The notes under the pieces: generated by a model
The model's input: the letters and a program-made list of their open reading frames with translations, nothing else
What the model was told of the DNA's origin: nothing
The model's database searches: none
Made by a program: the position numbers and the translations under genes
Assembly: GCA_964627625.1 (NCBI GenBank)
Contig: CAZVJB010000011.1
Location: 12,175 to 76,174 of the forward strand
Direction of reading: 5' to 3'
DNA from: an uncultured Halobacteriales archaeon
Lineage (GTDB): Archaea > Thermoplasmatota > E2 > JACPAO01 > JAHFTW01
Length of the DNA stretch: 64,000 nucleotides
Shown: positions 11,543-12,426 of the stretch, one piece after another
Layout of the letters: each line of letters opens with the position of its first letter
Position numbering within the stretch: position 1 is the first letter of the stretch

Positions 11543-12073
11543 ATGCCCGAATCCCTGGAAACCGGCGTACCGACCACCAAGGGGTGGGAGACCGTTATTG
11601 CGGCGGTCCGAACCAAGTGGCAGCTTCTTGCCCTCATGGTACTCGCCGCGTACGCGGTAGTAAGCGGCCTCATATTTGCAAAGGCAGAGGCCGGCCTCAT
11701 CTACATGGCGCTGGCCGTTCTCGCGCTGCTCGTCGTTGTCGTCGGAGCAGTCCTCCTTCGGCCCCGAACAGAATCAGAGGTCAGCCCCGGGACGGTAACC
11801 ATTAACCTGAAATTCCCTCGAGAACGGCCACCCATCAACTTTGTACGTGAGAAGTGCGTGGCAAAAATCTTCGCCCAAGATGGGGCGGAACGCAAGTCCG
11901 CGCCCGGGATGCCCACCCGCGGGCCGGGCGGGTGGTCTCTACGCCTCGGGCCAGGGTCCGTTCGCCCGACCGACCAAGTGCAGCTGCATCTGGTCGATTC
12001 GGAAGGAACAGCTTGGATTGTTCCAGACTTCCTCCCCCTTTCGAACACGCAAGATGTAATCCAGGAGGCCTGA
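11543..12073 (+). CDS. Small 2-TM membrane protein, upstream partner of the YEATS-like gene
   Basis: Two hydrophobic helices (WQLLALMVLAAYAVVSGLIF; LIYMALAVLALLVVVVGAVLL) are followed by a ~100-aa soluble C-terminal part. The stop TGA at 12071-73 lies 2 nt before the next ATG. Confidence 0.4.
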   Translation: MPESLETGVPTTKGWETVIAAVRTKWQLLALMVLAAYAVVSGLIFAKAEAGLIYMALAVLALLVVVVGAVLLRPRTESEVSPGTVTINLKFPRERPPINFVREKCVAKIFAQDGAERKSAPGMPTRGPGGWSLRLGPGSVRPTDQVQLHLVDSEGTAWIVPDFLPLSNTQDVIQEA

Positions 12074-12075
12074 CG

Positions 12076-12426
12076 ATGGCGCTGCACTTCGAGAACTACG
12101 CCTACCGGATCGATGAACGGGATGCGAAAACGGCCGGACCACCGTACTACCGGTGGAAGGTATTCTTGAATGAGCCCCCCGAGAAGGTTAGGGAAGTTCA
12201 CAGCGTTGAGTACAGACTTCATGAAACCTTCCCTGATCCCATCCGGGTTGTGCGAGACGCCAGTACGGGTTTTGCCCTGACGTCGCAGGGTTGGGGGGAA
12301 TTTACCATCTTCATCACAGTGACCATGAAGGATAGCACGGTGACTCGACAGAGTTACCCGCTGGATCTTAGCAAGCCCTGGCCCCGCACACTCGGCGGAC
12401 CCAATCCAATAGGCGCCGCCGGCTAG
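12076..12426 (+). CDS. Prokaryotic YEATS-domain protein (pYEATS), 116 aa
   Basis: YRWKVFLNEPPEKVREVHSVEYRLHETFPDPIRVVRD...FALTSQGWGEFTIFITVTMKD aligns motif-for-motif with the Yaf9/AF9 YEATS core (W.VFVRG, VVFKLHETYPNPVR, FE.TETGWGEF.I.I). Coordinates are frame-checked against the stop at 12424-26. Confidence 0.65.
   Translation: MALHFENYAYRIDERDAKTAGPPYYRWKVFLNEPPEKVREVHSVEYRLHETFPDPIRVVRDASTGFALTSQGWGEFTIFITVTMKDSTVTRQSYPLDLSKPWPRTLGGPNPIGAAG

Follow-up and report, generated by a model that had tools for sequence, protein, structure and literature searches.

The window analyzed here, a stretch of 64,000 nt of the archaeal contig CAZVJB010000011.1, contains two adjacent genes on the forward strand, A and B: A encodes a protein with a predicted transmembrane (TM) hairpin and a β-sandwich, and B a stand-alone pYEATS domain protein, the whole cassette coding for fewer than 300 residues (coordinates of all features are given in Table 1). 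The stop codon of A and the start codon of B are separated by exactly 2 nt (CG, 12074–12075), as the original prediction had it, and an AGGAGG sequence is seen 7 nt 5' of the ATG of B. The same two products appear in the public gene calls for this DNA; given 54 homologue clusters for A (see below) and a curated family for B, these are real genes and not chance open reading frames (ORFs). That the host is an archaeon is seen from other genes of the window: one for a proteasome-activating nucleotidase (538 bits; cut-off 500), one for a type II methionine aminopeptidase (273 bits; cut-off 223), and genes for haloarchaeal-type (HVO-type) helix-turn-helix domain proteins. A scan for sigma-70 promoters was uninformative, the host being archaeal, and a terminator-like hairpin at 11276–11297, after the gene upstream of A, is within chance expectation.

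Profile analysis of B shows a match to Pfam family PF20305, pYEATS (E = 1.6e-20, 73.2 bits, cut-off 26.9), over profile positions 1–73 of 73, and a match to the eukaryotic YEATS family PF03366 (E = 7.8e-14, 51.8 bits, cut-off 22). A profile built from the B homologues matches Yaf9 at 1.2e-12; in the Yaf9 alignment, LHETFPDP of B stands opposite LHDTYPNP, and GWGEF opposite GWGEF. We counted as a YEATS fold an Ig-like eight-stranded β-sandwich superposable on solved YEATS domains, and the AlphaFold model of B, calculated from 13 homologues (pLDDT 86.9; seven β-strands of at least three residues), was scored as such. The best 50 matches of this model in a Foldseek search of PDB are all eukaryotic YEATS domains (Yaf9, GAS41, Taf14, YEATS2, Sas5), with probability 1.0, TM-scores of 0.57–0.68, and 20–27% identity, and none of the 50 has another fold. 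It is near certain that B is a prokaryotic YEATS domain, as had been proposed from the motifs W.VF, LHETFP.P.R, and GWGEF.I.I, all of which are present in B (RWKVFL, RLHETFPDPIRV, and GWGEFTIFI, respectively).

The residues that form the acyl-lysine cage of YEATS domains are retained. H49, T51, and F52 of B occupy the positions of the LHDTY motif of Yaf9, that is, of the LHxS/TF-Y loop, which in AF9 comprises H56, S58, and F59; W73, G74, and F76 occupy the positions of GWGEF, the second cage loop. All six residues are invariant in the 13 B homologues. Among 42 pYEATS domains linked to A, the His, Thr/Ser, and Phe of the LHETF loop are each found in 42 of 42, and the Trp, Gly, and Phe of the GWGEF loop in 41, 41, and 42, respectively, conservation that is overstated to some degree, since the peptide patterns used to retrieve the loci overlap the cage motifs. 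The same residues are nearly as conserved in 43 pYEATS sequences of other architectures. With its cage residues intact, B probably still binds a planar acyl-amide ligand, e.g., acyl-lysine or a similar N-acyl group. It has no signal peptide.

The AlphaFold model of A, calculated from 46 sequences (pLDDT 82.5), consists of a short N-terminal helix, two TM helices, a linker, and a β-sandwich of about 90 aa. The sandwich is predicted confidently, with block-mean pLDDT values of 85–97 from residue 81 on and at least 93 from residue 101 on. Two hydrophobic segments recur throughout the family, and the conserved positions (F91, G129, W131, L150, W158, F163, P165) all fall within the sandwich. The earlier description of A as a small 2-TM protein thus accounts for its two hydrophobic helices but misses a β-sandwich, predicted to face the cytoplasm, which is the conserved core of the protein. 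Lys and Arg residues, counted over the 46 sequences, number 92 in the N-terminal flank of the hairpin, 28 in the loop, and 104 in the C-terminal flank, a distribution that predicts an N-in/C-in topology for A with the sandwich in the cytoplasm; B, lacking a signal peptide, would share this location.

When 1.84 billion representatives are searched exhaustively with HMMER, 54 clusters of A homologues appear at E ≤ 0.001, nearly all of them 156–188 aa long. A word-index protein search with A returns only A itself, and a profile of the sandwich alone returns seven homologues; the few source annotations seen for A homologues read "hypothetical protein." A has no match in Pfam (S_2TMBeta included), NCBIfam, PADLOC, or PHROGs, and its sandwich has no match in BFVD at E ≤ 0.001 and no profile match in PDB. 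hhalign of A against pYEATS gives a probability of 0.1, so that a divergent YEATS domain is not detectable in the sandwich. As judged from sequence, A is a new protein family, combining a TM hairpin with a β-sandwich, outside the four profile libraries searched.

To characterize the pair, we collected 13 genome loci by pattern search of 185,579 species genomes, 80 metagenome loci, and several contigs by exact look-up, and searched the six-frame ORFs of these loci with hidden Markov models (HMMs) of A and B. The pYEATS is close to B of the window (at least 115 bits) in 44 of the 82 non-redundant loci, and in 35 of these 44 A lies immediately upstream on the same strand. When one locus with A upstream of a PG_binding_1-bearing B homologue (L002), one with a broken A (L017), and two with A–pYEATS fusions (L050, L054) are counted as well, the association holds for 39 of 43 evaluable loci; the four exceptions are L031, L033, L061 (an FGE-sulfatase–pYEATS protein), and L062 (a caspase–pYEATS protein). 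Among the 38 more distant pYEATS loci, only four have an A-like neighbor. Conversely, a look-up starting from A finds pYEATS directly downstream in all seven homologues examined, one of these pYEATS being cut by the contig end, with a start (...DDWYEWKV) that fits the domain. The pair is seen in two Thorarchaeota, one Thermoplasmata, an unclassified archaeon, a Euryarchaeota metagenome-assembled genome (MAG), and one Chloroflexi MAG, as well as on dozens of metagenome contigs; the two genes are conserved as neighbors across these lineages, as the original prediction required.

The junctions of 41 non-redundant pairs are tight, with a 4-nt overlap in 16, a median gap of 0, and a distance between −4 and +15 nt in 36. 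Pairwise identities of A and of B across 31 loci are correlated (r = 0.80, a value reached in none of 2000 Mantel permutations); A diverges faster, the mean identity across loci being 28% for A and 49% for B. All-against-all comparison of the flanks shows that A and B are the only genes common to the pair loci, with no third conserved gene. The partnership of A and B is, with near certainty, obligate, and the two proteins probably bind each other.

Two of the exceptions, L031 and L033, are related contigs, on which a close pYEATS that reads GWGES where B has GWGEF occurs without A, and an unrelated ORF of 132 aa occupies the upstream position of A. This pYEATS may be a decaying or re-wired copy.

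At least two independent fusions join A and pYEATS in a single polypeptide. The protein P0054 (301 aa) unites the TM hairpin and the sandwich of A with pYEATS. A single ORF of L050, which is truncated at the 5' end, matches both the A sandwich (35 bits) and the pYEATS domain (119 bits), and L054 (322 aa) is laid out like these, with pYEATS confirmed by Pfam and the A part below the HMM threshold. Such fusions indicate that A and B act together, and on the same side of the membrane. In a further variant (L036, L038, and L039), the gene preceding pYEATS encodes a TIR_2 domain (95 bits) followed by a sandwich of the A type, which scores 87 bits against the A profile, the TM hairpin having been replaced. 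Thus, it is the β-sandwich of A, and not the hairpin, that always travels with pYEATS, and the swap points to the sandwich as a constant adaptor with an exchangeable N-terminal module, either a TM hairpin or TIR. Exchangeable N-terminal modules are the pattern at effector positions of prokaryotic immune systems; TM and TIR modules, specifically, are interchangeable in the effector slot of systems of the CBASS (cyclic oligonucleotide-based antiphage signaling system) and Pycsar type, Pycsar employing TM or TIR effectors analogously.

The pYEATS domain is also found fused to other domains of effector or sensor type, in proteins with a signal peptide and a caspase domain, with FGE-sulfatase, with WD40, with a signal peptide and two pYEATS copies, and with pentapeptide repeats, variety that characterizes it as a portable ligand-binding module. 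The caspase–pYEATS proteins (about 400 aa) combine a signal peptide, Peptidase_C14 with its His and Cys motifs (SGHG, DSCFSG), and a C-terminal pYEATS; the signal peptide suggests that pYEATS works outside the cytoplasm, too. In L002, the pYEATS protein directly following A (P0004) has an N-terminal PG_binding_1 domain and no signal peptide, and a PLD-family nuclease, two integrases, and IS21 genes are found downstream. In L010, from the Euryarchaeota MAG, a divergent A-like gene (30–32 bits) overlaps by 4 nt a gene for a pYEATS–pentapeptide-repeat fusion.

The fold and cage of B, as in the eukaryotic histone readers, might suggest an archaeal chromatin reader of acylated lysines on histones or other chromatin proteins; a YEATS protein of Heimdallarchaeota has been interpreted in this way (PMC6136690), and the subfamily of B is present in Asgard archaea. 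However, the obligate partner of B is a membrane protein, natural fusions tie pYEATS covalently to the TM hairpin, a Chloroflexi bacterium has the same module, and genes for histones, acetyltransferases, or deacetylases do not recur in the vicinity. We regard chromatin reading as very improbable.

The genomic context of the pair was analyzed through 145 neighbor genes of the pair loci, each Pfam family being represented among them at most three times. In the window itself, the pair lies about 1 kb upstream of the gene for an Rhs protein of 2940 aa. Its placement directly upstream of the Rhs locus, as noted originally, is correct as to the region, but one ORF of 266 aa intervenes. This proximity could be taken to mean that A and B are accessories of the Rhs toxin locus, with a role in immunity, secretion, or maturation. 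A and B are the only genes that recur at the pair loci, however, and RHS/YD families are absent from the 25 most frequent families of the neighbor genes; moreover, the usual place of an Rhs immunity gene is after the toxin tip and not ahead of the Rhs gene. On these comparative flank data an Rhs-accessory role, to which we give hardly any credence, was rejected, and the adjacency is considered incidental.

The same 25 most frequent families include no nucleotide cyclase or CD-NTase, and a cyclase, SAVED, CARF, or a similar nucleotide-signaling component is neither part of the cassette nor recurrent beside the pair loci. Prokaryotic YEATS domains had been said in the original prediction to be computationally linked to nucleotide-signaling conflict systems. 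The literature search found no text tying pYEATS to such systems: the 2020 eLife paper on conflict systems (main text and one supplement) has "Yeats" only as an author name, the anti-phage papers listed do not mention a YEATS domain, and the only discussion of archaeal YEATS found is that in PMC6136690. The link is thus unconfirmed as a literature claim, and it finds no counterpart in the components of this cassette or its recurrent neighbors. Membership in a second-messenger conflict system (CBASS, Pycsar, Thoeris, or type III CRISPR-like) was rejected, as the cassette, in which only A and B are conserved, has no signal-generating enzyme and no known nucleotide-sensor domain, the latter class comprising SAVED, CARF, STING, the Cap15 β-barrel, and SLOG/Macro. 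A lysis cassette of the holin–endolysin kind, in which a small TM protein accompanies a muralytic enzyme, usually in a virus or prophage, was also rejected: B has no enzymatic domain, and searches of viral contigs, of phage genomes, and of PHROGs and BFVD yield no match.

The patchy taxonomic distribution and mobile genes near some copies suggest that the pair spreads sporadically, probably by horizontal transfer. Integrases, transposases or other insertion sequence (IS) elements, a restriction–modification system, and the PLD nuclease are found near some copies. The plasmid search retrieved only one pYEATS, distant and solo, on the conjugative plasmid pSTA7437.01 of Stanieria cyanosphaera PCC 7437 (L097); its neighbors are an integrase, ISAs1 and IS1 transposases, and a HigA antitoxin, and no A-type gene is annotated upstream.

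A small two-gene cassette with stop/start overlaps, co-diverging partners, and a mobile look (an integrase, IS21, transposases, and HigA near some pYEATS genes) also resembles a toxin–antitoxin or addiction cassette, in which A would be a small membrane toxin and B a proteic antitoxin binding the β-sandwich, the cage being incidental or serving only the contact between A and B. This explanation is strained by the stable single-chain A–B fusions, which do not fit the logic of a labile antitoxin, and by the retention of the cage in every architecture, including those without A, which argues for an external ligand. The order of the genes is not the common one either: in type II toxin–antitoxin systems the antitoxin gene more often comes first, while here the putative toxin gene does. 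We consider an addiction cassette quite unlikely.

The reading we prefer, with a probability of roughly 0.5, is that A and B constitute a mobile sensor–effector module of the conflict-system kind, in which pYEATS, by reading an acyl-amide ligand, governs an effector, membrane-disrupting or TIR, by way of the β-sandwich. The two genes would form a module that is complete in itself and moves horizontally, and their products, translated as a unit, would work as a complex. B would act as a cytoplasmic YEATS-fold reader of a planar acyl-amide ligand, and A, anchored in the membrane by its N-in/C-in hairpin, would dock B with its cytoplasmic β-sandwich. Binding or release of the ligand by pYEATS would be relayed by the sandwich to an effector module at the N-terminus, which in most members would be the TM hairpin, oligomerizing and compromising the membrane, and in one variant the TIR domain. 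Such a design would be of the sensor–adaptor–effector type known from abortive infection and conflict systems, with no dedicated enzyme generating a signal. The defense role, membrane damage as the output, and the nature of the ligand are what we infer for this module.

Several observations weigh against this reading. The two-helix hairpin could be a simple anchor, and the TIR variant represents a single lineage on three near-identical contigs. A and B are absent from PADLOC-DB 2.0 and PHROGs, no linked enzyme writes or erases an acyl mark, and relatives of B were not found in viral contigs or phage genomes. The flanks are mixed and not consistently defense islands: genes for ribosomal protein S24e, Rpb7, ScpA, and fatty-acid β-oxidation adjoin several copies. 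Integrases and a restriction–modification system are seen near some copies, and housekeeping genes near others. The sampling has its own bias. The loci were drawn through pYEATS, mostly by the peptide patterns LHETFP and GWGEF, at least one of which each locus matched exactly, which biases the sample toward the close subfamily, a bias partly corrected by the seven look-ups from A; most metagenome contigs are short (1–5 kb), with neighbor genes called by a crude longest-ORF rule. PADLOC also gives no match for the fusion protein P0054 or for the genes flanking the pair in the window.

If the hairpin is only an anchor, A could be the membrane tether of a housekeeping pYEATS reader, recognizing acyl-lysines on membrane-associated proteins or N-acyl groups of lipid-linked or envelope precursors, with no killing of the cell. 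An intact cage and the tight association of A and B would be expected of such a reader, and the housekeeping surroundings of some copies, the peptidoglycan-binding domain of P0004, and the signal peptides of other pYEATS proteins, which suggest envelope-related ligands, point the same way. Prokaryotic acyl-lysine readers are, moreover, still being sought, and a 2021 review of bacterial lysine acylation treats dedicated bacterial readers as an open question (PMC8556138). A housekeeping function agrees poorly with the patchy and rare distribution (the patterns used retrieve 13 loci from 185,579 species genomes), the lack of conserved synteny, and the fast divergence of A, and the replacement of the TM hairpin by TIR is hard to reconcile with pure anchoring. 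We regard the tether as possible, though rather unlikely.

The nearest known designs differ from the sensor–effector module proposed here in definable ways. The CBASS effector Cap15 has a pair of N-terminal TM helices as well as a C-terminal β domain, and disrupts the membrane upon oligomerization (PMC10419184). A shares with effectors of the Cap15 or S-2TMβ type the pair of TM helices at the N-terminus and the small C-terminal β-rich domain; in contrast to them, it has no S_2TMBeta match, its cassette has no cyclase, and ligand binding is apparently supplied in trans by pYEATS. B, like the eukaryotic YEATS readers (Yaf9, GAS41/YEATS4, AF9/ENL, Taf14, YEATS2), is an Ig-like β-sandwich with aligned LHxT/SF and GWGxF loops, but it is a stand-alone domain in an operon with a membrane protein, outside any chromatin complex, and its host clade includes organisms without tailed histones. 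The archaeal YEATS protein HeimC3_47440 of Heimdallarchaeota LC_3, with its conserved pocket for modified lysine, was read as a reader of histone tails (Henneman et al., 2018, PMC6136690), whereas the A-linked subfamily is membrane-coupled. Within PF20305, B is a full-length, above-threshold member and a relative of the RefSeq protein WP_015212094.1 of Stanieria. RefSeq already uses the name "pYEATS domain-containing protein," and the PF20305 entry describes the domain alone, without A as a partner.

The YEATS/pYEATS domain itself is thus known. No description of the A partner, the cassette, the fusions, or the TIR variant was found in the literature searched, and all four appear to be undescribed in the searchable literature; the A family can be defined from the alignments made here. 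The cassette offers a prokaryotic context for YEATS alternative to the histone-code-like reading in Asgard archaea (PMC6136690): its obligate partner bears a membrane or TIR module, its cage is intact, and natural fusions occur. Its compactness makes it a handle on what the YEATS cage reads outside chromatin and on whether protein acylation serves as an immune or stress signal. Also, YEATS genes of Asgard archaea should not be scored as eukaryotic signature proteins of the chromatin type before their neighbors are checked. A more specific form of the sensor–effector proposal is that the cassette is an undescribed prokaryotic immune module, whose cage detects an acyl-lysine or N-acyl ligand specific to infection or stress and switches on the membrane or TIR effector; this is tentative, and we hold it to be on the unlikely side. 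If it were true, B would be, among acyl-lysine readers, the first whose role in archaea or bacteria is defined, and, given the presence of the subfamily in Asgard archaea, a conflict-system origin of the eukaryotic YEATS chromatin readers would be indicated.

Table 1. Coordinates of genes, domains, and motifs in the window and on collected contigs (L numbers); a close pYEATS is one scoring at least 115 bits.
Feature	Sequence	Coordinates	Strand	Remarks
Gene A, 176 aa	window	11543–12073	+	ATG 11543, TGA 12071–12073; ORF read from the sequence
Predicted TM hairpin of A (residues 25–46 and 52–72, short loop)	window	11615–11758	+	AlphaFold model
Predicted β-sandwich of A (residues 85–171)	window	11795–12055	+	conserved core of the A family; proposed adaptor to pYEATS
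Coupling junction	window	12063–12078	+	AGGAGG 12063–12068, TGA 12071–12073, CG, ATG 12076–12078
Gene B, 116 aa, stand-alone pYEATS domain protein	window	12076–12426	+	ATG 12076, TAG 12424–12426
LHETF motif of B (L48–F52)	window	12217–12231	+	alignment to LHDTY of Yaf9
GWGEF motif of B (G72–F76)	window	12289–12303	+	GWGEF of Yaf9, second cage loop
TIR–sandwich partner gene	L036	867–1625		close pYEATS next, overlap about 20 nt
TIR–sandwich partner gene	L038	737–1495		close pYEATS next, overlap about 20 nt
TIR–sandwich partner gene	L039	673–1431		close pYEATS next, overlap about 20 nt
Caspase–pYEATS	L062	566–1771		
Caspase–pYEATS	L072, L077	5053–6258		further near-identical copies L073–L079
PG_binding_1–pYEATS (P0004)	L002	8001–8495		
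Divergent A-like gene and pYEATS–pentapeptide-repeat fusion	L010	5435–6804		
Close pYEATS with GWGES	L031	848–1180		
Close pYEATS with GWGES	L033	972–1304		
Solo pYEATS of pSTA7437.01	L097	7803–8237		NC_019765.1 263453–263887
Genes for 499-aa and 581-aa proteins	window	8045–11232	+	
ORF of 266 aa	window	12764–13564	+	
Rhs ORF, 2940 aa	window	13471–22293	+	Rhs-associated core at residues 2619–2698
Helicase and nuclease genes	window	35563–38452		helicase on +, nuclease on −
PRTase-CE and ORC-CDC6-like ATPase genes	window	42044–45390	+	overlapping genes

Among the other genes of the window, the Rhs protein contains acidic double-disulfide repeats, YD repeats, and the Rhs-associated core, and its C-terminal tip of about 240 aa has no assignment among the families reported. 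The proteins flanking the A–B pair have no family assignment in profile searches: upstream are a 499-aa protein with a weak laminin-G/ConA-like match and a 581-aa protein that is hydrophobic in a central stretch, and downstream is the 266-aa protein, which has hydrophobic N- and C-terminal segments and may be surface-anchored. Farther downstream, a UvrD/GajB-like helicase (PADLOC GajB, 4e-54) stands beside a DUF6602/NucC-like PD-(D/E)xK nuclease on the opposite strand, and a PRTase-CE gene (PF24390; PADLOC PRTase_III-A, 5.5e-13) overlaps a gene for an ORC-CDC6-like ATPase (PF24389). The latter two look like a candidate two-gene defense system, and, taken with the GajB-like and nuclease genes, suggest a defense-gene cluster 23–33 kb downstream of the A–B pair.

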